Source: Escherichia coli (GTDB lineage: Bacteria; Pseudomonadota; Gammaproteobacteria; Enterobacterales; Enterobacteriaceae). Taken from it: 64,000 bases of DNA. The stretch lies in the NCBI RefSeq assembly GCF_011045215.1, contig NZ_CP049201.1; one strand, 5' to 3'. Below the pieces are notes generated by a model. The model saw only the letters and a program-made list of their open reading frames with translations, was not told where the DNA came from and made no database searches. Made by a program: the position numbers and the translations under genes. Positions 3,262 through 34,688 of the stretch are shown here, one piece after another (position 1 is the first letter of the stretch; the number at the start of each line of letters is the position of its first letter).

Positions 3262-5334
<2,073 letters not shown>

Positions 5335-9183: not shown

Positions 9184-9203
9184 CACAAACGTGAAAATCC
9201 TTG
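9184..9203. repeat. prophage attL core (20-bp direct repeat)
   Basis: AAAATCCTTGTTGATGAAAA is repeated exactly at 46009..46028; the two copies bracket the prophage. Confidence 0.65.
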
Positions 9204-9296
9204 TTGATGAAAAAAACAAAGATTTAATTTATTGATATAAAAGGATTTGTATCAGCGTATGTCCACGCGGTGACCACATTTTCGAGAGGTAGAGTA

Positions 9297-9323
9297 AGCC
9301 CGCAACATTGCGGGCTTTGTCTT
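9297..9323 (+). terminator. plus-strand hairpin and T-tract just inside the prophage left end
   Basis: agcccgcaacattgcgggct followed by ttgtctt; in the circularised phage this would lie downstream of int across attP. Confidence 0.45.
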
Positions 9324-10113
9324 ATGGTTCGATCGCCGTTTTGAGACGTTGTGTTGCTACATCAAAATAATGATCACTGGTTTCTATACCAATAAATTTG
9401 CGTCCTGCTTTCAGTGCAGCCACACCCGTTGTCCCTGACCCCATAAAAGGATCAAGGACTGTTCCACCACTATTCGCAGTCCTGACCAGCTCTGCCATAA
9501 GTTCTTCTGGCTTTCCGGTCGGGTGCATTTTCTTTGACGGGATAACCGGGAACGTCATGCAGCCGTCGAACGGACCTGAAGGCGATTTATCTAAATGGCC
9601 TTTGCTGCCCCAGACGATGTATTCACACTGATGCCGGAAATACCCCGTATGGGGTGTTCGTGACCCCCTTCCTTTGTTCCACACAATGATTCCACGCCAT
9701 GTAAAACCGCTGGCCTGAAACGCATCGGTTAAAGCTGGTAGTTGTCGCCAGTCAGTAAATACCAGGGCATAACCGCCCGGTCTGACCGCGCGGTGTGCCT
9801 GTGCCATCCATAATTGTGTCCAGTAAGCCCACGAACGGGCGTCCATGTTTTCACCCGCGAACCCATCAAAGCGGTGAAGGTTCCCGCCGTTCAGATATTT
9901 TGCATGGCTGCCCTGGTTGGTGCGTCCGGCCTTGTGTGTCGCACCCGAACTGTAAGGCGGGTCAGTGATTAAAGCATCAATGCTTTCTGGCTCAATCAGC
10001 GGCAATATTTCCAGCGCATTCCCACGACAGAGCGTGGCATTGTCAGTCTGATAAACCTTAGTGTGTTCCGGTGTATGTGCTGGTTGGTGCTGGATTGCGA
10101 TCCCCACGGTCAT
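9322..10113 (-). CDS. DNA amino-methyltransferase (N6-adenine or N4-cytosine)
   Basis: 263 aa; DPPY motif (ITDPPYSSG) precedes the AdoMet motif (FMGSGTTG), i.e. permuted motif order; AGGAG 3 nt before the ATG, lying inside the com 3' end. Confidence 0.85.
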   Translation of the reverse strand: MTVGIAIQHQPAHTPEHTKVYQTDNATLCRGNALEILPLIEPESIDALITDPPYSSGATHKAGRTNQGSHAKYLNGGNLHRFDGFAGENMDARSWAYWTQLWMAQAHRAVRPGGYALVFTDWRQLPALTDAFQASGFTWRGIIVWNKGRGSRTPHTGYFRHQCEYIVWGSKGHLDKSPSGPFDGCMTFPVIPSKKMHPTGKPEELMAELVRTANSGGTVLDPFMGSGTTGVAALKAGRKFIGIETSDHYFDVATQRLKTAIEP

Positions 10114-10255
10114 AACTCCTCATGTGTGTGGGGTGCTCGATGGCTCTCGTTATCTGGTTAAGTGTTTTGCAGCGCGGACATTTTATTTCAATGTAGTGAA
10201 ATGAGGCGCGGGCAAGTAGTTTGTTGCAATTTTTGCATCGTACATTTTGCGTCAT
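10058..10255 (-). CDS. com: Com-like zinc-finger translational regulator
   Basis: MTQNVRCKNCNKLL...IEIKCPRCKTLN resembles Mu Com as recalled (CxxC...CxxC); 3' end overlaps the methyltransferase start by about 56 nt. Confidence 0.75.
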   Translation of the reverse strand: MTQNVRCKNCNKLLARASFHYIEIKCPRCKTLNQITRAIEHPTHMRSYDRGDRNPAPTSTYTGTH

Positions 10256-10302
10256 TTGCGGCACCTCTTGTGTGGTTACTGCTGCCGATATGATAGCAAA
10301 TC

Positions 10303-10337
10303 GATCGTTTTTATCGATCGGATTTATTGCATCGATC
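10303..10337 (-). promoter_or_regulatory. cluster of three GATC sites upstream of com
   Basis: Three TCGATC motifs at 10303, 10315 and 10334 within 35 bp, 40-80 bp upstream of the com start. Confidence 0.5.
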
Positions 10338-10365
10338 TGTTATGTCTATTGCTCATGGATGGGGA

Positions 10366-10401
10366 TACCAAAAAGAAAACCCGCAGTTTTTACGCTGCGG
10401 G
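10366..10401 (-). terminator. rho-independent terminator (minus strand)
   Basis: On the minus strand cccgcag-cgtaaaaa-ctgcggg followed by ttttctttttgg. Confidence 0.6.
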
Positions 10402-10490
10402 CTTGTTGTTCATGTCTGTGAGATAGGGTGCCTTATCGACCTTACCCTGACAACCGATTGACGGGGGATTGCTCCCCCGTCGCGGTTTCC

Positions 10491-10631
10491 TTACTGCTTA
10501 CACTGTAAGAACGCCGCAAACTCCGCTCCCCAGAAGCTCATCCGTATTTCGCATAGCGAACCGTGCAGCATCCAGATGATGAGGATTGCCGTCACGCAGA
10601 ACGTGATGGCCGTAAGCGATTTTTGCGACAT
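10491..10631 (-). CDS. hypothetical 46-aa hydrophobic peptide
   Basis: MSQKSLTAITFCVTAILIIWMLHG...; AAGGAG 8 nt upstream of the ATG; below the ORF-track cutoff so read directly from sequence. Confidence 0.3.
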   Translation of the reverse strand: MSQKSLTAITFCVTAILIIWMLHGSLCEIRMSFWGAEFAAFLQCKQ

Positions 10632-10821
10632 AGCACTTGCTCCTTTTCCGGAGAGGCGCTAACCTTTCACTTGTCAAGGTAATGCGGTTAGGGCCTCGGT
10701 TAAACAGAGATGTTTTCCGGGGCCTTTCCACATCTGGCCTTCGGGTATTCCCTCCGACCATCAGCCGAAAGGCACCCGCGCGTAATCTATCGCTTTTTTG
10801 TTACTCCGGCAATTCTGCCTG

Positions 10822-11082
10822 TTAATTCTGAGGTAAAGGCAAACTCATCTGATTGTTTCCCCTGTGTGAAGCTGGCAGATCATGCCATGGGATACCTTCT
10901 GATGAGTGAACGCCGGAGGCGTGTTTCGATGTAAATTTATGGAAAGCTTCCAGTGTTGAGAAGCATACGCCGCATTCCAGGTTGTTACACTGGTAATACT
11001 TTTGCCGCACGGTGTTTGAATCATTTTCCGGACGACTGGTGCGGATACGGGCAGATGCGCCACAAAGCGGACAACGGAACAT
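10822..11082 (-). CDS. ogr: Ogr/Delta-type zinc-finger late-gene activator
   Basis: MFRCPLCGASARIRTSR...YYQCNNLECGVCF resembles the P2 Ogr Cys4 finger as recalled. Confidence 0.85.
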   Translation of the reverse strand: MFRCPLCGASARIRTSRPENDSNTVRQKYYQCNNLECGVCFSTLEAFHKFTSKHASGVHSSEGIPWHDLPASHRGNNQMSLPLPQN

Positions 11083-11124
11083 AGCGACCTCCCTTAACGT
11101 GGTGCTGTCGCTATTCTAAGTTCC

Positions 11125-12234
11125 TCACTCTGTTTCCGCTATCCATTCCGGGATTTTTGCCTCAAGCTCAAGCTGTGTGGTAAAGCCACTGTTATCAATG
11201 GTGTGCTCGGCTTTTGCAATAATCCAGTCCTGATTATCAATCTCGCTTTTAAATCCTGTTACCGTGCCATGCATTTCGGGGTAGAGTTCTGCGCGTCCGC
11301 GTGCCAGTGTGATGGAGAATGATGCGGCTCCGCGTTGTAGTTGTTGCCACTTTGCCGCCGCTGCGCGTCTTGCTGCCTGCTCGTTCTGATAAGTCTTGCG
11401 TAACACAAACACATTGCCTTCCGCGCCTTCCATATAATCACCTTCACGGCTGCTGCTTTTCTCTTTTTTCGGTTTTGGCGGTTTGCGGCGTTTCACGCTG
11501 ACTTTTTTCTTTTTCCCGTAATTAAGATCAAGCCAGTAAGCGCGTACCCCCGTATACGCCTCGCGGTCAGCAATGCGGAACTGATGGCGATCGCCGCTGC
11601 TGCGTGTGATGGCGAACGAGGGCAACGGCTGGCCCTGTGCGTTCACGCCACCGCCGGGCATGATGAATAACAGATTACCGCTTTTTACCGTGGTGATTGC
11701 GCCCAGCATTTCCGCCATGCGCGTAAGGAAGGACATGTCACTTTCTTCGGTCTGGTCGGCGTGGTCGATTTCGATATCCATCAGCATTTCGCTGATTTGC
11801 GGTTTCAGACCGTACCGATGAGCGATGGCGGATACCACACGCTCAACGGTCACATCATGCCAGGACATCTCACGTTTAACGTTAAATTCATCCCGAAAAT
11901 CTGCGCTTCTGGCTGAAACAGTCAGCCTGTCCGGCGGTCCTTCGTGAGCGATTTCATCAACAATGTAAGTGCCTTTTTCTGTCAGCGGTTCTCCTTTCCA
12001 GCCAATGAGAACCGTCAGGCGCGCGCCCCGTGGCGGTAGCTGCAACTGACCATCCGCATCATCCAGCGTGATGGTGAGCTGGTCCGCCTCAAATCCCCGG
12101 TTGTCGGTCAGTGACAGGCTCATCAGGCGCTCGGCCACGCCTGACAGCGTTTTACCCTCCGCGAGAATATCAAAATCCGGCATTTTCACGGGGTCTGTGC
12201 CCTGACTGAGCAATTGCATGGTGGTATCGGTCAT
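11125..12234 (-). CDS. D: tail protein D (gpD / late control D family)
   Basis: Listed ORF 11125..12366; GGAGGG precedes ATG at 12234 (MTDTTMQLL..); lysine-rich central segment; C-terminal NSGFTTQLELEAKIPEW as in gpD. Confidence 0.85.
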   Translation of the reverse strand: MTDTTMQLLSQGTDPVKMPDFDILAEGKTLSGVAERLMSLSLTDNRGFEADQLTITLDDADGQLQLPPRGARLTVLIGWKGEPLTEKGTYIVDEIAHEGPPDRLTVSARSADFRDEFNVKREMSWHDVTVERVVSAIAHRYGLKPQISEMLMDIEIDHADQTEESDMSFLTRMAEMLGAITTVKSGNLLFIMPGGGVNAQGQPLPSFAITRSSGDRHQFRIADREAYTGVRAYWLDLNYGKKKKVSVKRRKPPKPKKEKSSSREGDYMEGAEGNVFVLRKTYQNEQAARRAAAAKWQQLQRGAASFSITLARGRAELYPEMHGTVTGFKSEIDNQDWIIAKAEHTIDNSGFTTQLELEAKIPEWIAETE

Positions 12235-12391
12235 CTGTTCCCTCCCTGTGCGGCATGGTCGCATGTGCGTGCGGAGGGGGTTACTGCTTTTTGTTGTCGC
12301 CGTGGCGGGAGAACGGCGCAGGGGTGAGATTACGCGCGTGGTGGGTGATGATTGTTGCCGAATCATTTAACGGATACAAGGGGCTGAAGCT

Positions 12392-13576
12392 ATGAGTGAA
12401 ACTCGTTTTCATGGTGCCCGTGTTACGGAAAATACCGACCTGGTAACAGCGATTAACGATGTTGATTCCAGCGTTATCGGTATCGTGGCAACGGCGGATG
12501 ATGCGGACGCGAAGCTGTTCCCGCTGAACAAGCCCACACTGCTGACCCGCGTCAATGACGTGCTGGGAAAATGCGGGACAACGGGGACGCTTTATCGTGC
12601 GCTTAAGGCCATCGCAGACCAGGTGAGCACAAAGGTGATCGTCGTTCGCGTGGCTGAACACAAAGAAGAAGACGGAAAAACGCAGGATCAACTGGTTATC
12701 GGTGGTTCTGAATCTGACGGCAGCTATACGGGGATGTATGCGCTGCTTGTTGCAGAGCAGGATGAAAGCATCGGATACCGTCCGCGTATTCTGGCCGCGC
12801 CGGAGCTGGACACGGAGGCGGTAACAAAATCCCTGTGCGTGATTGCGGGTAAACTGCGCGCGTTTGTGTATGCCTCATGTCACGGCTGTAACACGATGGC
12901 TGAGGCGATTACCTACCGCCAGAAATTCAACGAACGTGAGGTGATGCTCTTATGGCCGGACTTCATCGCCTACAACCCGAAAAGTGGCAAAAACGAAACG
13001 TTCCCCGCGCCTGCCTATGCGTGCGGCCTTCGTGCGTACATTGACCATGAGCAGGGATGGCACAAATCACTGTCCAACGTTCCGGTTAAAAATGTGCTGG
13101 GGATGTCGAGGCATGTGTTCTGGTCGTTGCAGGCCGAAGACAGCGATGCCAACAGCCTCAACAACAAAGAAATCACGACCATTATTCGTCGCAACGGGTT
13201 CCGCTTCTGGGGCAACCGCACACCGGAAACGAACGCCTACATCTTTGAGGTGTATACCCGAACCGCACAGGTGCTGGCTGATTCAATTGCGGAAGCGCAG
13301 TTTGAAACCATCGACAGTCCACTGACGCCTGCGAACGTGAAGGATGTTATCAGTGCCATCAGGGCAAAACTGGATTCACTGGTTACTGCCGGGAAACTGA
13401 TTGGCGCGGAGTGCTGGTATGACGTGGTGGATAACAGCACCACGGATTTACGTCAGGGGCGTGTGCGTATTCGCTACAAATATACGCCTGTTCCCCCGCT
13501 GGAAGACATGGAGCTTTACCAGACGTTTACTGATGAATACTTTGAACCCGCATTTGCGGTGCTGGGAGGTGCCTGA
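12392..13576 (+). CDS. FI: contractile tail sheath protein FI
   Basis: 394 aa; strong resemblance to P2 gpFI (..FPLNKP..RNGFRFWGNRT..YTPVPPLE..). Confidence 0.92.
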   Translation: MSETRFHGARVTENTDLVTAINDVDSSVIGIVATADDADAKLFPLNKPTLLTRVNDVLGKCGTTGTLYRALKAIADQVSTKVIVVRVAEHKEEDGKTQDQLVIGGSESDGSYTGMYALLVAEQDESIGYRPRILAAPELDTEAVTKSLCVIAGKLRAFVYASCHGCNTMAEAITYRQKFNEREVMLLWPDFIAYNPKSGKNETFPAPAYACGLRAYIDHEQGWHKSLSNVPVKNVLGMSRHVFWSLQAEDSDANSLNNKEITTIIRRNGFRFWGNRTPETNAYIFEVYTRTAQVLADSIAEAQFETIDSPLTPANVKDVISAIRAKLDSLVTAGKLIGAECWYDVVDNSTTDLRQGRVRIRYKYTPVPPLEDMELYQTFTDEYFEPAFAVLGGA

Positions 13577-14088
13577 TGGCTGTGCCAAAACATCTTCGCT
13601 TTTTTACGCTGTTTGTGGATGGTGAAAACGAAGTGGGTAAGGTGACGTCCGTCACTCTGCCTAAGCTGACGCGCAAAACCGACAGCTACCGGGGTGGCGG
13701 CATGATGGGTGCGGTAAGTATTGATCTCGGTCTGGACGACTCCGCGCTTGATGCGAGCTTTGTCATGGGGGGCGCAGTTCGTGAGCTGTTCCTTAAGTAT
13801 GGCGGCACGATTGACGGCACGCTGCTGCGTTTTGCGGGTGAATACTACACCGATGCAGAAAGCGACCTGTATGAAGTCGAAATGCGCGGACGTGTGACGG
13901 AAATTGATATGGGGGAAGCCAAACAGGGCGAAGCCACATCACACACTTACGCCATTAAAAACACCTACTACAAGCTGAGTGTTAACGATCGCCCGTTGTG
14001 GGAGATTGACCTGCTGAACTTCATTTACCGGAAGGACGGCAAGGACATTGTGCCCGATCGCATCCGTTCCGCGCTTGGGCTTGGCTGA
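13576..14088 (+). CDS. FII: tail tube protein FII
   Basis: 170 aa; VTLPKLTRK..YRGGGM motif of P2 gpFII. Confidence 0.9.
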   Translation: MAVPKHLRFFTLFVDGENEVGKVTSVTLPKLTRKTDSYRGGGMMGAVSIDLGLDDSALDASFVMGGAVRELFLKYGGTIDGTLLRFAGEYYTDAESDLYEVEMRGRVTEIDMGEAKQGEATSHTYAIKNTYYKLSVNDRPLWEIDLLNFIYRKDGKDIVPDRIRSALGLG

Positions 14089-14142
14089 TAAGTAATATGC
14101 AGGCGGCGCAGTGCGTCGCCTCTGACTGAAAGGAGTTTCCTG

Positions 14143-14508
14143 ATGAAAGAGACGAAAAACATCGATACCGAAAACACGGTAGTTACTGACACTGTGAAAG
14201 AAACCAGTGAGCGTGGCGTAAAACTTACCCAACCAATTGAGCGAGGCGGCGAAAAAATCACGTATGTGGAGATCACCGGGGCTATTGAGCAGGCTGGATC
14301 TCTGCGAGATTTGTCGCTGTCTGATGTGCTGAATCTGAAAGCGGAATCCATGTTTACGCTGCTGTCACGCGTGACATCACCGCGACTGGATGAAGTGACG
14401 ATCAAAAAAATGGCATCCCGTGACTTTATTCAGTTATGTGTGGTTGCCGTAAATTTTTTGAGCGGTGCGGACTCTGGCGGGAAGAACGAACAGGCGACGG
14501 AAGCCTGA
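14143..14508 (+). CDS. E: tail assembly chaperone gpE
   Basis: 121 aa ORF immediately upstream of the tape-measure gene; overlapped by a -1 frame extension. Confidence 0.8.
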   Translation: MKETKNIDTENTVVTDTVKETSERGVKLTQPIERGGEKITYVEITGAIEQAGSLRDLSLSDVLNLKAESMFTLLSRVTSPRLDEVTIKKMASRDFIQLCVVAVNFLSGADSGGKNEQATEA

Positions 14509-14672
14509 TCACGGTTGTGTGCTTTGAGCACATAGAAGACTTTGTGGCGGATATTGCCGCCATTTTTAACTGGTCGCCCGCCGAAATCTTCATGATGACG
14601 CCCGGCGAAGTGGTTAGCTGGCGTGAGCGGGCGGCACTTCGCAGCGGGAATGCAGACAATGAAGACTCTTGA
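14436..14672 (+). CDS. E': E' extension, translated as an E+E' fusion by -1 frameshift
   Basis: ORF in the -1 frame relative to E, overlapping the E 3' end and the T 5' end; conserved arrangement in long-tailed phages. Confidence 0.7.
   Translation: MCGCRKFFERCGLWREERTGDGSLITVVCFEHIEDFVADIAAIFNWSPAEIFMMTPGEVVSWRERAALRSGNADNEDS
14454..14460 (+). other. programmed -1 ribosomal frameshift slippery site (TTTTTTG) producing E+E'
   Basis: aaa-ttt-ttt-g within gpE; the -1 frame continues ..FFERCGLWREERTGDG.. to a stop at 14672. Confidence 0.75.
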
Positions 14673-17466
14673 TATCCGGGTCGCTTTCAGCGCCGTTGAC
14701 AGGCTGACCCGGCCTGCCGAAAACGCCCGCCGCCTGATGGGGCAGTTTGGTGACTCCATCCAGCGAACGCAGGGGGCGATCAAAAATCTCGAGCGTCAGG
14801 CGCGTTCATTTGAGCGCGCCCGTGACGCTGTCAGTAAAGCGGATGCTGGCATATTGAAAGCACGACGCCAGCTTAACGCCCTTAATCAGTTACAACGCAC
14901 GGGTACAGTGCTCAGCGAAAAACAACAAAAGCTGATGCAGCAGTTAAGCACCCGGCTTGAACGCCTGAATGAATCGCGCACACGTGAAATTCAGAAAATG
15001 CGGGAGCTTGGCGGAGAGCTGAAACGCCACGGCATTTCCCTGACAGGCAGCGATAACACCATCCAGCAGGCCATCAGACGCACCGAACAGTACAACAACC
15101 AGCTTGAACGCGAACGGCAGGCGCTTGCGCGTGTAACGCGGGCGCGTGAGCGGTATTCGCGCGTGCAGGAAACCGCGGGAAAACTGAAAACAGGTGGTGC
15201 GCTGGCAATTGGTGCGGCAGCGGCGGGCGGCTATGCTGCCGGGCGTTTTTTGCAGCCTGCGATCGGGTTCGGGAAAGAGATGTCCCGCGTTCAGGCGCTG
15301 ACGCGAATCGACCAGAACAGCCCACAGTTTAAGGCGCTGCGTGAGCAGGCGTTAAAACTTGGCTCTGAAACGCAGTTCACCGCTGGAGATGCCGCCAGTG
15401 GACAGGCATTTCTTGCAATGGCTGGCTTCACACCACAGGCCATTCAGGCTGCGCTTCCCGGTGTGCTGAGCATGGCAACGGCTGGCGGTATGGATCTCGG
15501 TGAGACGGCGGATATTGGCTCAAACATCCTGACGCAGTTCGGCCTTTCTGCCGACCAGATGGACCGGGTCGGTGACACGCTCACCGCAGCGTTTACCCGT
15601 ACCAACACTGACCTTCGCGCACTGGGCGAAACCATGAAATATGCAGGTCCGGTGGCGGGCAAGCTGGGAATATCGCTGGAGCAGGCCGCAGCGATGGCGG
15701 GCGTGCTGGCGAATATGGGTATCAGGGGAAGTGATGCCGGGACGGCAATGCGTGCCAGCCTGGCTCGTCTGGCATCACCGCCAAAGGCGGCAGCAGAGGC
15801 GCTGAAAGAGCTTGGTGTGGCAGTCTCTGACGCGAACGGCAAAATGCGCCCGATGGAGGATGTGCTGGCCGACCTTTATAAAGCCACCCGCAAATACGGG
15901 GAAGTTGACCGGGTATCGTTCTTTAAGGACATTGCCGGAGAAGAGGCTTTCACATCGTTTATGGCGCTCGTTGATGCAGCGGGTGACGGTTCCTTACCTA
16001 AACTGAGAAAAGAACTTGAAGGCGCGCGCGGTGAGGCTGAACGCACAGCAAAGGTTATGGCCAACAACCTTGACGGCGATCTGAAATCACTCGGCAGTGC
16101 ATGGGAAGGGTTGCGCATCCGCATTGCAGATCTGATTGACGGTCCGCTGCGTTCTGTCACGCAGTGGCTCACACGGGTGGTATCAAGGGTGACGGCGCTG
16201 GCGCAGGCCCATCCGACACTGACGCGCCAGCTACTGATAGCAGGCGGTGCGTTGCTGGCAATGACTGCAACGGTTGGCTCGTTGTCGCTGGCTATTGGTG
16301 TGCTTGCTGGCCCGCTGGCAAAACTGCGTCTTGGTTTTTCTCTCCTGACCGGATCAATGAATGCTGTCAGGGTCCTGCCAGCACTATGGGGAATGGTGAC
16401 GGGTTCCGTTTCTTTGCTGGGAGGTGCTATCGGGGCGCTGTTCAGTCCGGTTGGTCTTATCGTGGCTGCGCTTGCCGGAGCTGCCGTTCTTATCTGGAAA
16501 TACTGGGATCCCATCAGGGCATTTTTTGCCGGGGTGTTCAGCGGGATTATGGAAAGGCTGATCCCGTTGCGCGAAACCTTTGAACAGTTTGGTCCTGTTT
16601 TTGACGCAATCGGAAGCGGGATCAGCCAGGTGTTTAACTGGTTTAAATCGCTGCTGTCACCGATGGAGTCCAGCAAGGAAACGCTGGATAAATGTACCAG
16701 TGCTGGCGAGATATTCGGTAACGTTCTTGGTGGCGCGTTACAGCTTGTTCTGACGCCTGCAAAAATGTTGCTGGATACGCTGGCGTGGATACTTGAAAAA
16801 CTCGGTGTTCTTCCGGATGAAGCGGAAAGGGCGAGAAAGAAAATCGAAGACGCACAGCGTGCGGCCATTCTTCAGGACAAGGTTGCCTTGCTTCAGGGGG
16901 ACCTGGCGAAAATCAATCCGCCGAAGCCTGTGGAAAATGGCAATGGCACCGGAGGTGATAAACCCAAAGACAACAAACCGCTCACAGACAGCAATACCGG
17001 GACGCTACGCAGACTCAGCAAAATTGCTGATAACACAGGTAAGCTGGTTGATGAGACGAAAAAACGCATTGGCCCCGGCGATATTGTCTTTAAGAACCTG
17101 CCCCGCGCACTTGCTGTTCGTGGGGAGTGGCAGGAGCGGAAGATTGCGCAGGTCAGTAAGCCTGCCCCCGCAATTAATATCACACCCGTGGTCCCGGCTC
17201 CGCTGCCTCCGGCGCTGGTCCCTGTTGTTGCGGCCAGCTCCCGCCCGGTGGCGGAGGCTATACGATCTCCAGTGGCATCAGTTCCTGTAACTTCCCGTAA
17301 CCGGGAGCCTGTTGCCTCCGGATTTGGTGGTGAAATTCATGTTCATCTGCATAACGTTGTTACGCAGAATCCCCGCGAACTGGCGAAACTAGTCGGTGAA
17401 ATGGTCAGGGCAGAAATGGAACGGCGCGCCCGTGCCGGGCGTGGCAGTTTTTACGATAAAGATTGA
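14623..17466 (+). CDS. T: tail tape measure protein T
   Basis: 947 aa, coiled-coil N-terminal region, Gly/Ala-rich hydrophobic middle; position between E/E' and U. Confidence 0.9.
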   Translation: MSGRHFAAGMQTMKTLDIRVAFSAVDRLTRPAENARRLMGQFGDSIQRTQGAIKNLERQARSFERARDAVSKADAGILKARRQLNALNQLQRTGTVLSEKQQKLMQQLSTRLERLNESRTREIQKMRELGGELKRHGISLTGSDNTIQQAIRRTEQYNNQLERERQALARVTRARERYSRVQETAGKLKTGGALAIGAAAAGGYAAGRFLQPAIGFGKEMSRVQALTRIDQNSPQFKALREQALKLGSETQFTAGDAASGQAFLAMAGFTPQAIQAALPGVLSMATAGGMDLGETADIGSNILTQFGLSADQMDRVGDTLTAAFTRTNTDLRALGETMKYAGPVAGKLGISLEQAAAMAGVLANMGIRGSDAGTAMRASLARLASPPKAAAEALKELGVAVSDANGKMRPMEDVLADLYKATRKYGEVDRVSFFKDIAGEEAFTSFMALVDAAGDGSLPKLRKELEGARGEAERTAKVMANNLDGDLKSLGSAWEGLRIRIADLIDGPLRSVTQWLTRVVSRVTALAQAHPTLTRQLLIAGGALLAMTATVGSLSLAIGVLAGPLAKLRLGFSLLTGSMNAVRVLPALWGMVTGSVSLLGGAIGALFSPVGLIVAALAGAAVLIWKYWDPIRAFFAGVFSGIMERLIPLRETFEQFGPVFDAIGSGISQVFNWFKSLLSPMESSKETLDKCTSAGEIFGNVLGGALQLVLTPAKMLLDTLAWILEKLGVLPDEAERARKKIEDAQRAAILQDKVALLQGDLAKINPPKPVENGNGTGGDKPKDNKPLTDSNTGTLRRLSKIADNTGKLVDETKKRIGPGDIVFKNLPRALAVRGEWQERKIAQVSKPAPAINITPVVPAPLPPALVPVVAASSRPVAEAIRSPVASVPVTSRNREPVASGFGGEIHVHLHNVVTQNPRELAKLVGEMVRAEMERRARAGRGSFYDKD

Positions 17467-17472
17467 GGAGTC

Positions 17473-17967
17473 ATGGCCATGATGATGATCTACGGCATGT
17501 TTGTTTTTGAGCTGCGCACGCTGCCGCATCAGCAGTTACAGCAAAACAAAAGCTGGCGGCATGTGAAAAATGAACGCGTTAACCGTTCAGCAAGCTGGCA
17601 GTATATCGGTGCAGGTGATGATCGCATCGTTCTTTCTGGTGTGCTTTATCCTGAAATTACAGGTGGCGAAGTGTCGCTGTCGCTGCTGACCACGCAGGCG
17701 TATACAGGACGACCCTGGCCTTTGATTGATGGTGTCGGGCAGATTTACGGCATGTATGTCCTGACCGGAACGAATACGACCCGTTCCGAGTTTGATCGCT
17801 ACGGTAAGGCGAAAAAGATAGAATTTTCACTGACCCTTGAACGCTGTGATGAGGATTTGCGGGAGCGCCTGCAATCCTCATCGTTCAGTGATATGCTGTC
17901 CGGCTTCAAAGATAAGGTCACATCATCCCTTAACAGCGCGGCCAGCTCCGTTAAAGGGCTGTTTTGA
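17473..17967 (+). CDS. U: tail protein U
   Basis: 164 aa; MMMIYGMFVFELRTLPHQ..SWRH resembles the P2 gpU N-terminus. Confidence 0.85.
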   Translation: MAMMMIYGMFVFELRTLPHQQLQQNKSWRHVKNERVNRSASWQYIGAGDDRIVLSGVLYPEITGGEVSLSLLTTQAYTGRPWPLIDGVGQIYGMYVLTGTNTTRSEFDRYGKAKKIEFSLTLERCDEDLRERLQSSSFSDMLSGFKDKVTSSLNSAASSVKGLF

Positions 17968-17974
17968 TTAACGC

Positions 17975-18004
17975 AAAACCGCTAATGGTCAGATTAGCGG
18001 TTTT
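17975..18004. terminator. bidirectional hairpin terminator between convergent U and invertase genes
   Basis: aaaaccgctaat-ggtcag-attagcggtttt: perfect inverted repeat flanked by an A-run and a T-run. Confidence 0.6.
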
Positions 18005-18611
18005 CATTTTCCTGAGTCTGCCTGGTTGTTTCTTCAGCCTGTATATCGCCTACAGGGTGATAACGATAAATCGTCGATATGCCGATGCCGTAAATGATCG
18101 CCAGTTGTTTCCTGTCATGACCGTTTTTGATCAGCCTTGCTATTTGCTCATGCTGTTCTTTTGTCAGCTTCGGGCGACGTCCGCCTGTGCGCCCCCGTGC
18201 GCGCGCTGCCGCCAGTCCGGCCAGTGTACGTTCAACAATTAATTCACGTTCCATTTCAGCCAGGGCACCCATCACGTGGAAGAAAAAACGCCCCATTGGA
18301 GAAGATGTATCTATGCTGTCGGTCAGACTGCGAAAATTAATCCCTCGCTCCCGTAGTTCTCCGACGAGAGAAATCAGATGTTTCATGCTTCGCCCAAGGC
18401 GATCCAGTTTCCAGACAACCAGCGTGTCACCTTTTTGAAGCCGCTTTAAAGCGCGTTTTAATCCCGGTCGGTCTGTCTTTGTCCCGCTTAATTTATCTTC
18501 AAATATTTGTTCACATCCTGCACAAACAAGAGCGTTTCGTTGCAGGTCTGTATTCTGGTCATTTGTTGATACCCTTACATAACCAATCAGCACACTGAAT
18601 CTCCCGTCCAA
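17994..18611 (-). CDS. serine recombinase, DNA invertase (Gin/Pin/Cin/Hin family)
   Basis: ..LIGYVRVSTNDQNTDLQRNAL.. catalytic-Ser N-terminus and C-terminal HTH; true start may be the GTG at 18593 (GGGAG upstream). Confidence 0.92.
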   Translation of the reverse strand: MDGRFSVLIGYVRVSTNDQNTDLQRNALVCAGCEQIFEDKLSGTKTDRPGLKRALKRLQKGDTLVVWKLDRLGRSMKHLISLVGELRERGINFRSLTDSIDTSSPMGRFFFHVMGALAEMERELIVERTLAGLAAARARGRTGGRRPKLTKEQHEQIARLIKNGHDRKQLAIIYGIGISTIYRYHPVGDIQAEETTRQTQENENR

Positions 18612-18647
18612 AAGCGCAAATCATGCCATGCAGGCCGGAAACGGCCA

Positions 18648-18673
18648 TTATCTAAAACCTCGGTTTACAGGAA
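18648..18673. repeat. gix/hix-like recombination site (left end of invertible segment)
   Basis: Reverse complement reads TTCCTGTAAACCGAGGTTTTAGATAA, close to the remembered Gin gix consensus; inverted copy at 21716..21741. Confidence 0.8.
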
Positions 18674-19618
18674 ACGGTAAATCAGGCTTCTGGCGCATTA
18701 CAGAAAAACCAGAACGGCGCAGATATTCCGGGAAAAGATACCTTCACCAAAAATATTGGGGCCTGCCGCGCATATAGCGCATGGCTGGATATTGGTGGCG
18801 ATAGTCAGGTCTGGACAACCGCGCAATTTATTTCGTGGCTGGAGAGTCAGGGAGCATTTAACCATCCTTACTGGATGTGCAAAGGCTCATGGGCTTATGC
18901 AAATAATAAGGTCATTACAGATACAGGTTGCGGAAATATTTGTCTTGCAGGTGCTGTGGTGGAAGTTATTGGCACTCGCGGCGCAATGACCATACGCGTT
19001 ACCACGCCGAGCACGTCCAGCGGTGGAGGAATTACTAACGCTCAATTCACTTATATTAATCATGGTGATGCTTACGCTCCTGGCTGGCGACGAGACTACA
19101 ACACGAAAAATCAACAACCTGCATTTGCTTTAGGGCAAACAGGAAGCACTGTCGGAAATGATAAAGCTGTTGGCTGGAACTGGAATAGCGGGGTCTATAA
19201 CGCAAATATTGGTGGCGCATCGACATTAATCCTCCACTTCAATATGAATACGGGGAGCTGCCCTGCTGCACAGTTCCGCGTGAATTACAGAAATGGCGGA
19301 ATCTTTTATCGTTCAGCGCGTGATGGTTATGGCTTTGAAGCTGACTGGTCAGAGTTTTACACCACAACCCGCAAACCCTCTGCGGGAGATGTTGGTGCAT
19401 ATACGCAGGCAGAATGTAACTCAAGGTTTATTACAGGTATTCGCCTTGGCGGTCTGTCATCTGTTCAGACATGGAATGGTCCCGGCTGGTCTGACAGGTC
19501 AGGTTATGTCGTTACGGGTTCAGTTAACGGAAACCGTGATGAATTAATTGATACAACTCAGGCAAGGCCAATTCAGTATTGCATTAATGGGACGTGGTAT
19601 AACGCGGGGAGTATTTAA
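18674..19618 (+). CDS. alternative (currently silent) tail-fibre C-terminal exon
   Basis: Frame is open from the crossover site ([22 protein letters not shown]..) with no start codon of its own; would fuse in frame to the H constant region after inversion; listed ORF 18875..19618 is its downstream part. Confidence 0.75.
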
Positions 19619-19620
19619 CG

Positions 19621-20154
19621 ATGATGCACTTAAAAAACATTACTGCTGGCAACCCTAAAACAAAAGAGCAATACCAGCTAACGAAACAATTTAACATCAA
19701 ATGGCTTTATTCAGAGGATGGAAAAAACTGGTATGAGGAACAAAAGAATTTCCAGCCAGACACTTTGAAAATGGTCTATGACCATAACGGCGTTATTATT
19801 TGTATTGAAAAGGATGTTTCAGCAATTAATCCGGAAGGCGCAAGCGTCGTTGAATTACCTGATATTACAGCAAATCGCCGTGCTGACATTTCGGGTAAAT
19901 GGATGTTCAAAGATGGCGTAGTGGTAAAGCGAACTTATACCGAGGAAGAGCAGAGGCAGCAGGCGGAAAATGAAAAGCAAAGCCTGCTACAGCTCGTCAG
20001 GGATAAAACCCAGCTATGGGACTCACAGCTACGGCTGGGCATCATTTCCGACGAGAATAAACAAAAATTAACCGAGTGGATGCTCTATGCGCAGAAAGTC
20101 GAATCCACAGACACCTCCAGCCTGCCAGTAACGTTTCCAGGACAACCAGAATGA
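19621..20154 (+). CDS. tail fibre assembly protein, alternative copy (G'/U'-type)
   Basis: 177 aa, [19 protein letters not shown]..; paralogue of the 20183..20710 product with a diverged C-terminus. Confidence 0.85.
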
Positions 20155-20157
20155 GAC

Positions 20158-20182
20158 AAGGCCCGCTATCGGGCCTTAATTT
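20158..20182. terminator. hairpin terminator between the two convergent tail-fibre assembly genes
   Basis: aaggcccgctatcgggcctt followed by aatttttatt. Confidence 0.5.
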
Positions 20183-20710
20183 TTATTCAGGCTTTTGTGG
20201 CCATTCAGGATTTGCCGTATCCACACGGCTGACCAGAACACTGTAGCGTTCCCATGACTCCAGTCGTGTGCGTTCCTCATCCGTCGCCATATTCAGCCTG
20301 ACAGCGCGTTCCAGTGGCTGAATAACGCTTTCAGCTTCGGAAAGTAACGCAGCCTTTTGTGATTCGGCCTGTTGTTGTTGCTCGTCTGCCGTATAAATCC
20401 GTTTAACTACAGCTCCATCCTTAAACATCCACTTTCCTGAACCATCAGCGCGGCGGTTGGCTGTAATATCGGGAACCTCAACGACGCTAAAACCTTCAGG
20501 GTTAAGCGTGGAGGCATCTTTAGTAATGGCGACAATAATATTATTTGCATCGTAAACAATCTTTATTGTGTCTGGCTGAAAGTTTTTCACTTCCTCATAC
20601 CAGTTTTTTCCGTCCTCAGAGTAAAGCCAGATAACTCCGTGTTTCTTTGTTAACTCATACTGTTCCAGTGTTTTAGCGTTACCCGCTTTTATGTTCTTTA
20701 AGTGCATCAT
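20183..20710 (-). CDS. G: tail fibre assembly protein (gpG-type), expressed orientation
   Basis: 175 aa immediately downstream of H on the same strand. Confidence 0.85.
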
Positions 20711-20711
20711 A

Positions 20712-22874
20712 TTAAACGCTCGCTACATTATACCAGGTGCCATTTATATACTTTTGAACGGGTCTGTAATAAACGCCCGCTATATTATCGGCAGAGTTGG
20801 AGCCTGTATCCTGAACATTAATACCAGACAATACATGACCTGACGGGCACTGGAAATTCCATGTTTGCCAGTTGTTCACTCCATAATATTGCTGTGAACC
20901 AAGTCGAACATCTTTCACATATCTGGAATCAAAATTGCCATAATTGCCGGGAATAACTTGCGCACCGCAAAGCCAGTTCCCGTTATTATCCATGTACGCC
21001 TGACCATCGGTGCCATTGGCTGTCCTTGAGTTATTAATCATGTAGATGCCAAATTGCTTATTTCCCAGACCGCCAATCATAAATTTTCGGTCGGCATGGT
21101 CCTGACGGAGCAAGGCCTGGGCGCTATCAGTGTTAACTATATTTTTCCCAAAGATAGCGTTGTTATCGCGCATCTGAATCCACATACCATTACCGCTGTT
21201 AATAGCAAAACGGTCTGAAAGTGTTTCTCCTGAAACATTAAGGCCACGCCCCATCGAAACAGCGCCAGTAGCGTTATTAATCCATAATGGCCTTAATCCG
21301 TTATAAGTCCCCATGTTGTCACCGGAGTTTGTCAACATGAAGTATGTATTTGAACCATCATTACGAATAAAGAATCCGTAACTACCATAAGCAATACGTA
21401 GGCCGTTTGCTGATTTTGATATGACTTCGCCATTTACAATGGCATTGACAAGAACATACAAAGCATCCCATTTAAGATTCATCAGGTCTTTTGTTGTGGT
21501 GCCTTGTTTGCTTCTCCATTTGAAATATTCATTGCCGTTGTCGCCTGTTTCAAACCACATGTATGAATCAGTATCGCTGTCGGCATCATTTTTAAATCCA
21601 ATCTTTGCCCAGTCAGTATTTCGAATCCAGGCAAGGATTGAGTCGTTTTCAAAAGTAAGTCCACCGGACAAGGTATCGCCTGTCTTTTGAACGGCGTTAC
21701 CAGCCTTGTTTACCGTTTCCTGTAAACCGAGGTATTCGATAACGGCGGCAACGGTCGATTTCGCAAGAATATCCCGCCCAACTTTTGTCAGGGTTGCCAA
21801 GCTGGCAACATCATTCCCCGTAAAATACGGAAACCTGTCTGCCGCAGTAGCAAGCCCGGCCAGCGCCGTCAGGGTGGCATCTTTCGGTTGCTTACCCGCA
21901 AGCGCGTTAGTCATGGTGGTCGCAAAATTCGGGTCGTTGCCCAACGCCGCAGCCAGCTCGTTCAGCGTATTCAGTGCGTCAGGCGACGAGTCCACGAGGG
22001 CAGCGATCGCAGCCATAACATAAGCCGTGCTTGCGATCTGAGTATTGTTAGTACCTTTTGGCGCAGTTGGTGTTGTTGGTGTTCCGGTCAGTGCCGGGCT
22101 GTTTAATGGGGCTTTCTTGTTCGTTTCATCCATTACCGCCTTAACCGCTTTTGGTGTCGCTGCCAGCGTTTCAGACGTGCTGTTGGTTGCACTACTAAGC
22201 TGGACAAGGCCTTTTCGCGTTGTAGTGGCGTCCTGAGCGGTATATTTTCCGTTAGCCAGGTCATACGCGGCCTTTACTGCTTTCGGCGTTGCAGCCTGCG
22301 TTTCAGAATCGTTGTTAGTGGCGCTACTGAGTTGAACAAAGCCTTTTGCGGTCAGCGAGGCATCCGGGTGACGTCGTGACTGTTCATGCTCTTTCAGTTT
22401 GTCATTCACGTAATCCACTGTGGCCATAACCATGGTGTTATCCACGGTAAGCGCCACGGTGGCAGTGCTGGATACGGTCAGAATGGTGCGAAATGTTTGT
22501 GCACGTCCGGACCCTTCGGCAACGGCTGGCTTGTAACTTTCGGCAGTATTGCCCACCGCGATCAAATCGCCGTGCTCATCAAACACACCAATTTCCCGGA
22601 TCCAGAATCCGCCCGTTTCAGGAGGAATAACCAGCTCTGCAATAATGCGGTTCTGATGTGTTGCGTCCAGGATGATGCGATTAACAGTATGTCGCCACAC
22701 CTCATGCACCAGACGGGTCTGCTTACTGTCTGGTGTGGGCAATGTACCGCCACCGTCGCCCACGGCCATATGAGTCAGGCGGACAGGCTTACCATCTGGC
22801 GCGGCTGCCTGAGCTAATTTTTTGGCACCCGTATCGGTGATAACGGTTTTAAATTTTCGTGTTGTGGTACTCAT
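20712..22874 (-). CDS. H: tail fibre protein H (constant N-terminus 22874..21742, variable C-terminus 21715..20712)
   Basis: 720 aa; N-terminus [34 protein letters not shown] resembles P2 gpH; a gix-like site lies in frame inside the gene. Confidence 0.9.
21716..21741. repeat. gix/hix-like recombination site (right end, inside H)
   Basis: TTCCTGTAAACCGAGGTATTCGATAA; inverted repeat of 18648..18673, differing only near the centre. Confidence 0.8.
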
Positions 22875-22876
22875 GC

Positions 22877-23407
22877 TTAATCGTCCGGATAAATGGTAAT
22901 GACTTCGCCGTCGTAAGTTGCTGCCGCCGCGAAAATATCTCCCTGAATCTCCTGAATGATATTCAGCCCTGTCATGTGGCGGCTGACCGGGCGGGCATCA
23001 GCAATCAACCGCTCCATTTCCAGATACATTTCCTCGGTCACACCACTGTCCAGCGTGCCGACTTCAACGGTAAATGTTCCCGGTTCTCCGCCGAACTCCC
23101 ACCACTCAGACACACGAATGAGGTATCCCAGCGGCTCAATGGCCCGGCGCAGTGCGCTGATGGTCCCTTTGTGTCGGTGTATCAGCCATGCATCACGAAT
23201 CACCTGTCGTTTTGTCTCTTCCGGCCAGTTGCGATCCCAGCGGTCAACGGAAAATGCCCAGGCGAGATAAGGCAGCAGGTGCACCGGGCAGGTGTCCGGC
23301 GACCACAGCGTGTTGAGGTCTACCGGAATGTCTGTAATGCGTGTTCCGACGGCTTCGGCACAACGCATGAAACTGCTGGCTGATGGCGGTAACAGTGAAT
23401 TACTCAT
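22877..23407 (-). CDS. I: baseplate protein I
   Basis: Listed ORF 22877..23440; probable start MSNSLLPP; P2 gpI-like, follows J. Confidence 0.82.
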   Translation of the reverse strand: MSNSLLPPSASSFMRCAEAVGTRITDIPVDLNTLWSPDTCPVHLLPYLAWAFSVDRWDRNWPEETKRQVIRDAWLIHRHKGTISALRRAIEPLGYLIRVSEWWEFGGEPGTFTVEVGTLDSGVTEEMYLEMERLIADARPVSRHMTGLNIIQEIQGDIFAAAATYDGEVITIYPDD

Positions 23408-24296
23408 TGCGCCCACCTTCGCTGATGGTGAATGACTCACAGCGCGCCGCCTGTATGTCGCTGATGGCCATATTCTGTGTGGGTTCGATTATCTCCACGC
23501 GTTGCACACCGTGCACATGCAGTGCGGCAGCAATGGCGGACAACGCCACGTCCTGACCGATAAGCCCCTGCTCAGCCAGCCACTTCCTGAACGACGATTC
23601 CGCCGCCGCCAGAATAGGTTCGGATTCCGGACCGGGGTAAAAGTACAGTTTTGCATTCAGCCGCCATGTCACGATTCTGGCGCTCTGTACGGTCAGGCGG
23701 TCGGCCACCGGGCGGGTATCCTCTGCATTCAGAACGGCGCGAACGGTATTAAGCAACGCCTCCGTTGCTGTGCCGTCGCCTTCAGTGGACAGGATGGAAA
23801 CCGTCACATTTGCCGGAGACGGACTGATAGCCCGCGCATCACGCACCAGACCGCTGGCGCTGCGGGCAAAATACTCGTATGCACCTGACGGGCCAGCAAC
23901 ACTCAGGCCGTCGTACGCCCGTTGCGCCCGCAGTCTCAGCGAGGTGTCGCTTTCCATCACCGCGTCGGTGGTATCCGTTGCCGGAGTGATAACCAGGCGC
24001 TTTGTGTTCATATTGCCCGCGAGGTTGTCCAGGTCTGTCCCGGCGCTGTGGCTTAACATGCAGGCGCGTGCACCCTCGTTAACCCGCTGGCGTAACAGCA
24101 TTTCACGAAACGACATGGTTTGAGCGATAACGTTAAGGGGTTCCGATTCCAGCTCCAGCGCGGCGGAAACGGCTTCACGCTGTTCGGCGGGATAAGCCGC
24201 AATCATCATGGCCTTTGTGTCAGCCAGAATTGCCTCAAAGTCAGGCTCCGCGATGATGGCGGGGTCCGGTAACTGTGAAAGGTCAACGGCGGGCAT
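23400..24296 (-). CDS. J: baseplate assembly protein J
   Basis: 298 aa; P2 gpJ-like in length and position. Confidence 0.85.
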   Translation of the reverse strand: MPAVDLSQLPDPAIIAEPDFEAILADTKAMMIAAYPAEQREAVSAALELESEPLNVIAQTMSFREMLLRQRVNEGARACMLSHSAGTDLDNLAGNMNTKRLVITPATDTTDAVMESDTSLRLRAQRAYDGLSVAGPSGAYEYFARSASGLVRDARAISPSPANVTVSILSTEGDGTATEALLNTVRAVLNAEDTRPVADRLTVQSARIVTWRLNAKLYFYPGPESEPILAAAESSFRKWLAEQGLIGQDVALSAIAAALHVHGVQRVEIIEPTQNMAISDIQAARCESFTISEGGRNE

Positions 24297-24299
24297 GAT

Positions 24300-24650
24300 T
24301 TACTCCCTCAGCGTGATGGTTAATTCAACATTCTGCATGGTCTGCATGACAGTGCCCGACAGCGTCACCCCGGCGCGGCCTCCCGCTTTCCAGACAACGT
24401 CGATGGCATCCAGGGCAATGCGGGGTTCCCATCGTGTCAGCGCAATCACGGCAGCACTCATGCATTGCAGACGCGTGGTGTTATTCATGGGTTCGTCAAT
24501 CAAATCAGGCACAAGGCTGCCATATTCCCGTCGCATAACCCGGCTTGCCAGCGGGGTGGTCAGGATATCCCTGACTGACTGTTTCAGGTGCTCCATATCG
24601 TTCAGGTTTCCCGTCCCGTCCGGATTCATTCCTGTGTAGCGGGTTGTCAC
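24300..24650 (-). CDS. W: baseplate wedge protein W (gp25-like)
   Basis: 116 aa; size and position as P2 gpW. Confidence 0.85.
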   Translation of the reverse strand: MTTRYTGMNPDGTGNLNDMEHLKQSVRDILTTPLASRVMRREYGSLVPDLIDEPMNNTTRLQCMSAAVIALTRWEPRIALDAIDVVWKAGGRAGVTLSGTVMQTMQNVELTITLRE

Positions 24651-25228
24651 TGCGGGCCTCCTGTCGAATCGCTGCCGCCTTTCACGCCACCGTGTTTATG
24701 CGTATGCACGGTAATGCCGTTTGAGGTGAAGTTGCCGCCGCTGTGCGTGATATTGCCGCTCATCTTTCCTCCTTTTGTGACGTCAAGCGTCGCCGTTCTC
24801 AGAAGGTTTGTGCATTCCACGACGGGCGTATCCAGTTTCACGCTGACGGATGCCTGTAAAGTGGCCGTTTTCATGCCGCTGGCGCTCAGTGCGCCAGCGT
24901 CCGCGTCGTAGCGGAACATCGCGCCGTCCGGCGCGCTGATCACGATTTCTTTCAGGCTTTTGCCGGGTGCCGGATTGGCATCACTCCACAGACTGCCAAT
25001 TATCATGGCGGTTTCCGGGTTGCCGCCAATGCAGGCAATTACCACCTGTTCGCCTGGTGATGGCGGCAGCCACACATTGAAGGCTCCCGCGCGCGTGGTG
25101 TTCCAGCGCAACCAGCCTGTTTCCAGTTCGCCGCTGCGAACGCGCACGCGCCAGGACTTCTCATCAACTTCAGAGATGATCCCGGTGCGGATGATGTTGC
25201 TCAGCAGTCGCATGAGTTCTGCGCTCAC
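24647..25228 (-). CDS. V: baseplate spike/assembly protein V
   Basis: 193 aa; C-terminal ..HTHKHGGVKGGSDSTGGP typical of gpV. Confidence 0.85.
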   Translation of the reverse strand: MSAELMRLLSNIIRTGIISEVDEKSWRVRVRSGELETGWLRWNTTRAGAFNVWLPPSPGEQVVIACIGGNPETAMIIGSLWSDANPAPGKSLKEIVISAPDGAMFRYDADAGALSASGMKTATLQASVSVKLDTPVVECTNLLRTATLDVTKGGKMSGNITHSGGNFTSNGITVHTHKHGGVKGGSDSTGGPQ

Positions 25229-27574: not shown

Positions 27575-27576
27575 TG

Positions 27577-28280: not shown

Positions 28281-28372
28281 TCCTGAAAAAATCGGGCGGT
28301 GGGTGCGCGGTGTAAACGGTCACGGAGTCAAACCGGAACACCGCGCACGCCGCCCGCTGACGGGGTCAGTCG

Positions 28373-29173: not shown

Positions 29174-29218
29174 TTTTTCTCTCCGTTACAGGCGGGCATG
29201 ATGCCCGCCGTGAGTTGA

Positions 29219-30271: not shown

Positions 30272-30294
30272 AAAAAATTTGCTCCTTTGTCTTA

Positions 30295-34670: not shown

Positions 34671-34688
34671 GCTACGTTGACCTCTAAT

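Follow-up and report, generated by a model that had tools for sequence, protein, structure and literature searches.

Orientation, origin and candidate late promoter of the inverted FI–U tail module in a P88-like prophage of Escherichia coli

In phage P2 the tail genes FI to U and D run in the same direction as the late genes V to G; how, then, should a prophage be understood in which FI to U are read from one strand, and D, ogr and V to G from the other? This question is raised by an E. coli contig (NZ_CP049201.1), of which a stretch of 64,000 nucleotides, referred to below as the window, was analysed. A first-pass annotation of the window suggested an ancestral inversion or a distinct lineage architecture, with separate promoters for the parts of the late operon, and also considered a misassembly. 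The prophage in the window is P88-like (Xuanwuvirus, Peduoviridae), integrated within the 5′ end of pdxB, and its FI–U inversion is the usual arrangement, fixed long ago, of a very common P2-like group, namely P88 and its relatives. What the layout implies for late transcription has to be argued conditionally.

Gene layout around the inverted module

The Peduoviridae tail set FI-FII-E/E′-T-U-D-ogr is present in the window, with the sheath, tube, tape measure, gpU, gpD and Ogr families all found by Pfam matches, but the canonical P2 order fails. On the minus strand lies the ogr homologue (10822..11082, 86 aa; PF04606, E=5.2e-14), a member of the Ogr/Delta zinc-finger family of late activators whose translation carries CPLC...CNNLEC, and which follows D on that strand after 42 bp. 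Gene D, encoding the tail baseplate hub (11125..12234, minus strand, 369 aa; PF05954), is 97% identical to P88 gp51. It starts with the ATG at 12234, which is preceded by the Shine-Dalgarno sequence GGGAGGG; the start at 12366 given in the list of open reading frames is an upstream artefact. The tail sheath gene FI (12392..13576, plus strand, 394 aa; PF04984, PF22671 and PF17482), the product of which is 99% identical to P88 FI and 47% identical to P2/186 FI, diverges from D, and the region between the two start codons (12235..12391), estimated at about 157 bp in the first-pass annotation, is exactly 157 bp long.

Further along the plus strand follow FII, the tail tube gene (13576..14088; PF04985, E=7.5e-47), the tail assembly chaperone genes E (14143..14508) and E+E′ (14143..14672 as a whole), T, the tape measure gene (14623..17466; PF10145, E=2e-58), and U (17473..17967; PF06995, E=1.5e-38), another tail protein gene. 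The E+E′ product is a predicted frameshift product, read from the open reading frames and the sequence: a slippery TTTTTTG is present at 14454..14460, upstream of T, and the overlapping E′ frame continues to 14672; at this position two tail proteins are annotated in the P88 record. The T reading frame opens with GTG at 14623, and its likely start is the ATG at 14659, which gives a length matching the P88 annotation. Past U a bidirectional intrinsic terminator (17975..18004), a perfect 12-bp stem between AAAA and TTTT with a fold energy of -15.7 kcal/mol (z=-3.0), sits between U and the convergent gene of a Gin/Hin-type DNA invertase of the resolvase family (17994..18611, minus strand; PF00239 and PF02796). 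The invertase gene shares 92-96% nucleotide identity with gin of Mu and D108, and its slot is the one between the tail module and the tail fibre genes, i.e., the assembly gene G (20183..20710, minus strand) and the fibre gene H (20712..22874, minus strand). The strands proposed at first, plus for FI to U (12392..17967) and minus for D, ogr, the invertase and the other late genes, were thus confirmed by the reading-frame layout together with the Pfam matches.

Relatives, prevalence and origin of the inversion

Positions 10370..45780 of the window are collinear with Escherichia phage P88 (NC_026014/KP063541) at 96-98% identity, with matching blocks of 10.4, 12.4 and 5.0 kb in a single orientation, and full collinearity at the same nucleotide identity is found with its near relatives, Citrobacter phage Shae_phiSM, P884B11, 520873 and 500465-2. 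In all of them the strands are identical to those of the window, FI–U lying opposite D, ogr and the other late genes, and the invertase occupies the same slot. Unlike P88, the window contains a methyltransferase close to the end where ogr lies, and at 34.5-36.4 kb a low-GC island replaces P88 sequence. Divergence is also seen in the early region and at the tip of the tail fibre. Salmonella phage SEN4 (Senquatrovirus; FI 56% identical to that of the window) and Serratia phage KSP20 (FI 69% identical) share the inverted FI–U and the divergent D, separated by gaps of 157 and 151 bp, respectively, each with an exact TGT-N12-ACA in the middle; in SEN4, unlike the window, G and U have no invertase between them. 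Across all inverted lineages the D-FI gap measures 147-166 bp.

The inverted layout was found in 143 of the 145 loci fetched, which contain 96 distinct gap sequences, and FI and U share one strand in every locus of 135. Of 5426 complete E. coli genomes, 1355 (about 25%) contain the D/FI junction uninterrupted, and it is also contiguous in 13 phage records covering at least 80% of the region and in approximately 100 IMG/VR contigs. The possibility, raised at the outset, that FI–U was misoriented during assembly therefore has a negligible probability; misassembly is excluded, as independent complete genomes and sequenced phage isolates carry this junction without a break. Neither is the orientation novel, as had been contemplated, since it is common in a described subgroup that comprises Xuanwuvirus (P88), Senquatrovirus (SEN4), KSP20 and Klebsiella relatives. 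Published descriptions of P88, phiSM, SEN4 and Serratia PP4 do not mention the inversion, and a keyword search of the literature for inverted P2-like tail modules, incomplete in coverage and so compatible with an earlier explicit description in print, returned nothing relevant.

The co-directional order assumed to be canonical was checked directly and found in seven other lineages, i.e., P2-type phage, 186, Klebsiella Dagavirus, Ralstonia, Mannheimia, Burkholderia phiE52237 and Vibrio MAR, the last of which (Vhmlvirus) is an outgroup outside Peduoviridae. Co-directional FI-U-D marks the P2/186 layout, not the family. In neighbour-joining trees of FI and of D, which include few canonical taxa, all phages with the inverted layout form one clade with 100% bootstrap in each, which supports the ancestral inversion, or distinct lineage architecture, that had been proposed. 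One inverted clade stands among canonical co-directional phages, which points to one ancestral inversion, the direction of change being assigned by outgroup parsimony. A single inversion of FI–U in the ancestor of the P88/KSP20/SEN4 clade, combined with one Ogr site that drives both the D-ward and the FI-ward promoters, is very probably the correct reading. The block consisting of the PF promoter with its Ogr box and FI, FII, E, E′, T and U would have been flipped once relative to the P2 order, which would have made the PF control region and D adjacent and divergent, and left U converging on the slot of the tail fibre and invertase genes, with the bidirectional terminator in between. The inverted layout would since have been stably inherited as the normal architecture of this lineage.

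Could the polarity be the opposite, with the divergent layout ancestral and the P2/186 order derived? An unrooted view alone cannot give the direction of change, and the FI tree shows the inverted clade as the sister of the P2/186/Klebsiella/Burkholderia/Ralstonia group rather than nested in it. However, the successive outgroups, Mannheimia and Vibrio MAR, are co-directional, the D tree nests the inverted clade among canonical lineages, and the overlapping U/D start in the canonical lineages checked suggests translational coupling, which together make the reverse polarity highly improbable. It may also be asked if FI–U was taken from a different phage lineage and inserted the opposite way, given that P2-like phages are generally mosaic and that FI is only about 47% identical to P2 FI. 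Such a replacement is highly improbable: D, U, V, W, J and I have diverged from the P2 type to the same extent (43-59%), and identity to P2-type proteins is even inside and outside the module (FI 47, FII 44, U 46, D 48, J 54 and V 46%). The same fully supported clade emerges from FI, a gene of the module, and from D, which lies beyond it, and the spacing between the PF box and the ATG is retained.

The invertase gene adjoins the U end of the module, and FI–U might accordingly be regarded as a second invertible segment, turned recently or reversibly by the Gin-like enzyme; in degenerate relatives the endpoints of rearrangements and deletions do coincide with the gix site of H or fall close to it. 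The gix-like cores AAACCTCGGTTT (18655..18666) and AAACCGAGGTAT (21724..21735, inside H), however, bound the invertible tail-fibre segment (18655..21735), in which alternative fibre and chaperone genes (18875..20154, plus strand) face the gene at 20183..20710 on the minus strand, and cores of the AAACCNNGGTTT type were found only at 18655 and 21724, with none at either end of the FI–U module. Inverted repeats flanking 12392..17967, a check proposed in the first-pass annotation, were searched for, and the best pair, 26 nt at 77% identity within coding sequence, is at chance level. All 143 of 143 loci of the clade have FI–U in the same orientation, not in both, and SEN4 and many other relatives are inverted yet lack the invertase. 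The tail-fibre segment is separate from the FI–U inversion, and a role of the invertase in the latter is extremely improbable beside the single ancestral event.

The D/FI gap as a candidate bidirectional late promoter

A mapping of Ogr-dependent TGT-N12-ACA dyads in the D/FI gap had been proposed as a check, and their exact form is absent from the gap of the window: a scan for exact matches gave 14 in the whole window against 14.2 expected, which is chance level, none of them between D and FI. A TGT-N12-AGA dyad of the Ogr/B type with one mismatch, TGTCGCCGTGGCGGGAGA, is present at 12295..12312 and was recognised only through comparison with relatives, where the homologous box is exact in 13 of 21 representative lineages, KSP20 and SEN4 included. 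A generic sigma-70 scan of the gap revealed nothing useful. The centre of the dyad is 69.5 nt from the ATG of D and 88.5 nt from that of FI. Every inverted lineage has a single central box of the TGT-N12-ACA type, centred 80.5-88.5 nt from the FI ATG, and the corresponding distances elsewhere are 81.5 nt for 186 pJ, 82.5 nt for the P2 type and 78.5 nt for Dagavirus; the 186 and P2 sites themselves read TGT-N12-CCA. The same extended box, TTTTGTTGT-N12-AGAAC, recurs at 31204..31221 in the O/P gap of the window. Upstream of R (26321..26457) no convincing box for a third late promoter was detected.

On both sides of the dyad -10-like elements can be proposed. The candidate for the FI-ward promoter is GATGAT (12347..12352, plus strand), which starts 35 nt past the box and predicts a transcription start at about 12361, and its D-ward counterpart is GACCAT (12255..12260, minus strand), which starts 35 nt past the box on the D side and predicts a start at about 12246-12247. 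The offset of 35-40 on either side equals that of 186 pJ, where GACAAT occupies offset 35-40 and the annotated transcription start is at offset 49. A hexamer whose second letter is A and whose sixth is T is found at offset 35 in 17 of 18 lineages on the FI side and in 15 of 18 on the D side (at most 4 at other offsets), counts that come from related lineages and do not represent independent events. With the predicted D-ward start the leader would be unusually short, only about 12 nt, and would open with the Shine-Dalgarno sequence.

Since there is a single central dyad, the -10-like elements are mirror-symmetric and the design is that of 186 p12/pV, the FI-ward and D-ward promoters are probably not independent. 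Thus, of the rearranged late operon with separate promoters that had been suggested, the divergent D/FI promoter region stands, whereas independence of the two promoters is improbable. One dyad-symmetric site in the middle of the gap of about 155 bp would be bound by Ogr and would activate two mirror-image late promoters, the FI-ward one reading FI to U and the D-ward one reading D and then, by read-through, ogr. This arrangement, as well as the exact transcription starts, is derived here from motif spacing and conservation.

Why was such an inversion tolerated? We lean, without great confidence, towards the explanation that the dyad-symmetric Ogr box of PF was moved together with FI to a position beside the promoter-less D, and so made a second bidirectional late promoter, mirror-symmetric and with a single site; the late genes of the clade would then all be expressed from two such nodes (P/O and D/FI), with ogr in positive feedback through D-ogr read-through. 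No paper stating this two-node control of the P88 clade was found in the literature covered, which is incomplete. As a discovery the inversion carries little weight, because the layout is normal for a phage genus with annotated reference genomes and occurs in roughly one in four complete E. coli genomes. It is nevertheless a clean synapomorphy that splits the P88/KSP20/SEN4 clade from P2/186-type phages, and as such is useful for prophage classification and for annotators who assume P2 synteny. Casjens and Grose are said to have defined subclusters of P2-like phages in 2016. The D/FI gap itself offers a compact, well-conserved candidate for a bidirectional activator-dependent promoter that can easily be tested.

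Comparison with the late operons of P2 and 186

The FETUD (J) late operon of P2/186 shares with the window its genes and their internal order, including the E/E′ frameshift signal, and ogr/B is downstream of D in both. The candidate FI-ward promoter of the window is of the same PF/pJ type, and in P2/186 the Ogr/B box precedes the FI ATG by about 82 nt; a keyword search of the literature for 186 late promoters yielded nothing relevant. The difference concerns D, which in P2/186 closes the FI operon, overlaps U and belongs to an operon co-directional with V-G, whereas in the window it is split off and points in the opposite direction. For the control proposed at D/FI the closest known counterpart is the p12/pV region of 186, where the record annotates one B-protein site for both divergent promoters: the late genes there are 165 bp apart around one central TGT-N12-type dyad, and the D/FI (157 bp) and O/P (154 bp) gaps of the window have the same design, so that bidirectional control at D/FI would follow the same principle. 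In 186 this shared-site design is annotated only at the head-gene junction, the P/O homologue, whereas the P88 clade has a second, presumably functional, copy at D/FI.

Tail genes of the prophage and their strands

Gene calls and strands were checked by ORF listing and Pfam scans, which confirmed the claim of the first-pass annotation that the tail genes FI to U (12392..17967, plus strand) lie opposite to D, ogr and the other late genes. The plus-strand block consists of FI (12392..13576), FII (13576..14088), E (14143..14508, placed by ORF listing), T (ORF 14623..17466, likely ATG at 14659) and U (17473..17967), and within E there is a slippery site, TTTTTTG (14454..14460), with the E' frame continuing to 14672. 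On the minus strand lie ogr (10822..11082; PF04606, E=5e-14) and D (11125..12234, its ATG at 12234 preceded by GGGAGGG), as well as the invertase (17994..18611) and G, H, the baseplate, lysis and head genes. Two other calls were rejected: a longer D ORF reaching 12366, which is an artefact of first-start-codon choice, and a 72-aa ORF in another frame as ogr. The distance between the D and FI starts, previously put at about 157 bp, is exactly 157 bp. At the other end of the block U and the invertase converge onto a perfect 12-bp hairpin with A and T runs on either side (17975..18004; -15.7 kcal/mol, z=-3.0), which is read as a putative bidirectional terminator.

The region 10400..18700 is 97.1% identical over 100% of its length to Escherichia phage P88 (Peduoviridae, Xuanwuvirus), and 13 phage records are collinear with at least 80% of it; the longer stretch 10370..45780 is collinear with P88 in one orientation, at 96-98% identity over most of its length. 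In the RefSeq annotation of P88 the genes from sheath to gpU occupy one strand, with gpD and all other late genes opposite, as in the window. The prophage is placed by sequence in Xuanwuvirus and carries tail genes of the ordinary P2-family kind; the only feature it fails is P2 gene order, which is a mark of P2/186-type genera and not of the family. A 20-bp sequence, AAAATCCTTGTTGATGAAAA, is directly repeated (9194..9213 and 46009..46028) and overlaps the first codons of pdxB, beside the integrase gene (44807..45826). The prophage therefore probably spans about 9214..46008 (~9.2-46.0 kb) and sits within the 5' end of pdxB, with the repeats probably representing att core copies.

Other cargo was also observed. 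At the ogr-side end, in DNA without a P88 counterpart, there is a gene for a type II-like N6/N4 DNA methyltransferase (9322..10113, minus strand; PF01555; PADLOC MTase_II, E=4e-64), with no restriction gene identified as its partner. A Hok/Gef (MokW-like) toxin region (~10400..10800) lies between ogr and the prophage end; it is flanked by hairpin terminators (10377..10404 and 10459..10482), has P88 gp52 as its counterpart and shares 81% identity with a segment found in many Stx-converting phages. A low-GC island (34540..36360; 31% GC in 35001..36000), located between the portal gene and the replication/partition genes, takes the place of P88 sequence; its products are a DUF4760 protein (34732..35229) and a 280-aa protein whose only match is weak and Csx27-like (E=6e-6), and the island may be defence or moron cargo.

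Spread and origin of the inverted layout

The canonical order, with FI-U-D co-directional with V-W-J-I-H-G, was checked directly in seven lineages: a P2-type phage, phage 186, Klebsiella Dagavirus, Ralstonia RsoM1USA, Mannheimia phiMhaA1, Burkholderia phiE52237 and Vibrio phage MAR, the last from outside Peduoviridae. The published gene table of KS5 likewise has U and D on one strand (PMC3091744). The layout of the window recurs in Salmonella phage SEN4 (Senquatrovirus), which reads G (plus), U T E' E FII FI (minus), D (plus) and whose FI is 56% identical to that of the window, and in the Serratia phage KSP20 fragment AB452988, where gpD is divergent from gpFI-FII-E-T. Loci whose FI is 56-100% identical to that of the window were collected in two IMG/VR scans that started from an FI alignment. 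Over a total of 145 loci, which include the P2-type reference and some contigs fetched twice and contain 96 distinct D-FI gap sequences, D lies opposite FI in 143; D was scorable in 144, the remaining contig ending just upstream of FI without a D match, and the P2-type reference alone is co-directional. FI and U are encoded on one strand in all 135 loci compared, and baseplate J lies opposite FI in 71/73, the two others being the P2-type reference and L015, a deleted, rearranged remnant that retains D/FI divergence. Among complete E. coli genomes, 1355 of 5426 carry the D/FI junction (11800..12900) contiguously at an identity of ~95% or more, with as many as three copies in one genome. The inverted layout is widespread across loci and genomes, and misassembly is therefore ruled out.

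The novelty implied earlier was not upheld: the orientation is the common arrangement of a described group, in which case, by the first-pass annotation itself, it would be not novel. Public annotated records already contain it, the earliest being the KSP20 fragment, and the P88/SEN4/KSP20 group is a recognised distinct P2-like subcluster (PMC5261728, PMC9826266); in the literature found for this group, the coverage of which is incomplete, there is no mention of the inversion. The feature is real, correctly described, ordinary and already in databases.

Neighbour-joining trees (200 bootstraps, rooted on Vibrio MAR) were built for FI, inside the block (387 columns), and for D, outside it (350 columns). 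In both, all 23 inverted-layout representatives group into a single clade (100% support) that contains no canonical phage; this supports the proposed ancestral inversion, or distinct lineage architecture. Because the outgroups are canonical, it is the inverted order that is derived. Identity to P2-type proteins is similar for genes inside the block (FI 47, FII 44 and U 46%) and for genes outside it (D 48, J 54, I 59, W 43 and V 46%). These results are most simply read as one inversion, in the ancestor of the P88/KSP20/SEN4 clade, with the block not imported separately.

The invertase gene and the tail-fibre segment

The invertase is 92-96% identical in nucleotides to Mu/D108 gin, and the P2-type reference carries an invertase in the same variable slot. 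The only two gix-like cores found, AAACCNNGGTTT (18655..18666 and, inside H, 21724..21735), delimit a ~3.1-kb tail-fibre segment with alternative fibre tips and chaperones (18655..21735), in which the genes at 18875..20154 (plus) face those at 20183..20710 (minus); together with the invertase gene it resembles an invertible Mu G-segment cassette. No gix-like core lies at either junction of the FI-U block, a search for inverted repeats flanking 12392..17967 returned no significant pair, and the inversion is present without an invertase in SEN4 and many other clade members. There is no sign of invertase involvement in the FI-U inversion.

Some degenerate relatives were also observed. In L015 (IMGVR_UViG_2695420596_000005) V-W-J-I-H is flipped relative to ogr-D-FI; the break falls close to the gix site within H, and an internal deletion is also present. 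In L020 a deletion or replacement from E to the invertase ends at the gix site (window-equivalent 21722). These gix-associated endpoints are a hint that rearrangement in remnants may be invertase-mediated. In L022 and L038 the 5' part of D is interrupted by a ~1.2-kb insertion (window-equivalent 11967..11971).

Probable late control in the D/FI gap

The D-FI gap is 147-166 bp long in all lineages compared and contains one central dyad. The Ogr-type dyad suggested for this gap was recovered with one mismatch: exact TGT-N12-ACA, which occurs in KSP20, SEN4 and most Klebsiella/Serratia-type loci, is absent from the gap of the window (its window-wide count is at chance level), and the P88 group has TGT-N12-AGA, at 12295..12312 in the window. 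From box centre to FI ATG there are 80.5-88.5 nt in inverted lineages, compared with 81.5 at the annotated B site of 186 pJ, 82.5 at P2-type PF and 78.5 in Dagavirus; this match in spacing argues that PF and its activator site moved together with FI.

In sequences anchored on the box, -10-like hexamers (A at position 2, T at position 6) were found exactly 35 nt past it on the FI side in 17 of 18 mutually related lineages (GATGAT, 12347..12352 in the window) and on the D side in 15 of them (GACCAT, 12260..12255, minus strand), with at most four at any other offset. In 186 pJ GACAAT occupies the same offset 35, with the annotated initiation point at offset 49; by analogy, transcription in the window would start at ~12361 (plus) and 12246-12247 (minus), the latter giving a D leader of only ~12 nt. 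The leftward promoter would read both D and ogr; 42 bp separate the two genes, and no terminator is predicted in that interval. In the 3' portion of D, ~150 nt before ogr begins, a sigma-70-like match (GTAACA-18-GATAAT, 9/12; 11233..11262, minus strand) might give ogr a promoter of its own, comparable to 186 pB.

The extended form of the D/FI box, TTTTGTTGT-N12-AGAAC, recurs at 31204..31221 in the 154-bp gap between the divergent terminase P and scaffold O genes (31132..31285), where the -10-like hexamers start at offsets 35 and 36. Upstream of R, S and V the window showed no comparable box, and the baseplate genes may be without an Ogr promoter of their own. From these motifs and from the 186 parallel we infer that the D/FI gap would be a second single-site, bidirectional, Ogr-dependent late control region. 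Within a 165-bp divergent gap, the 186 record annotates a single B-protein site (3798..3817) for "activation of pV and p12 promoters", and the putative bidirectional promoter of the D/FI gap follows this p12/pV precedent and is not a new mechanism.
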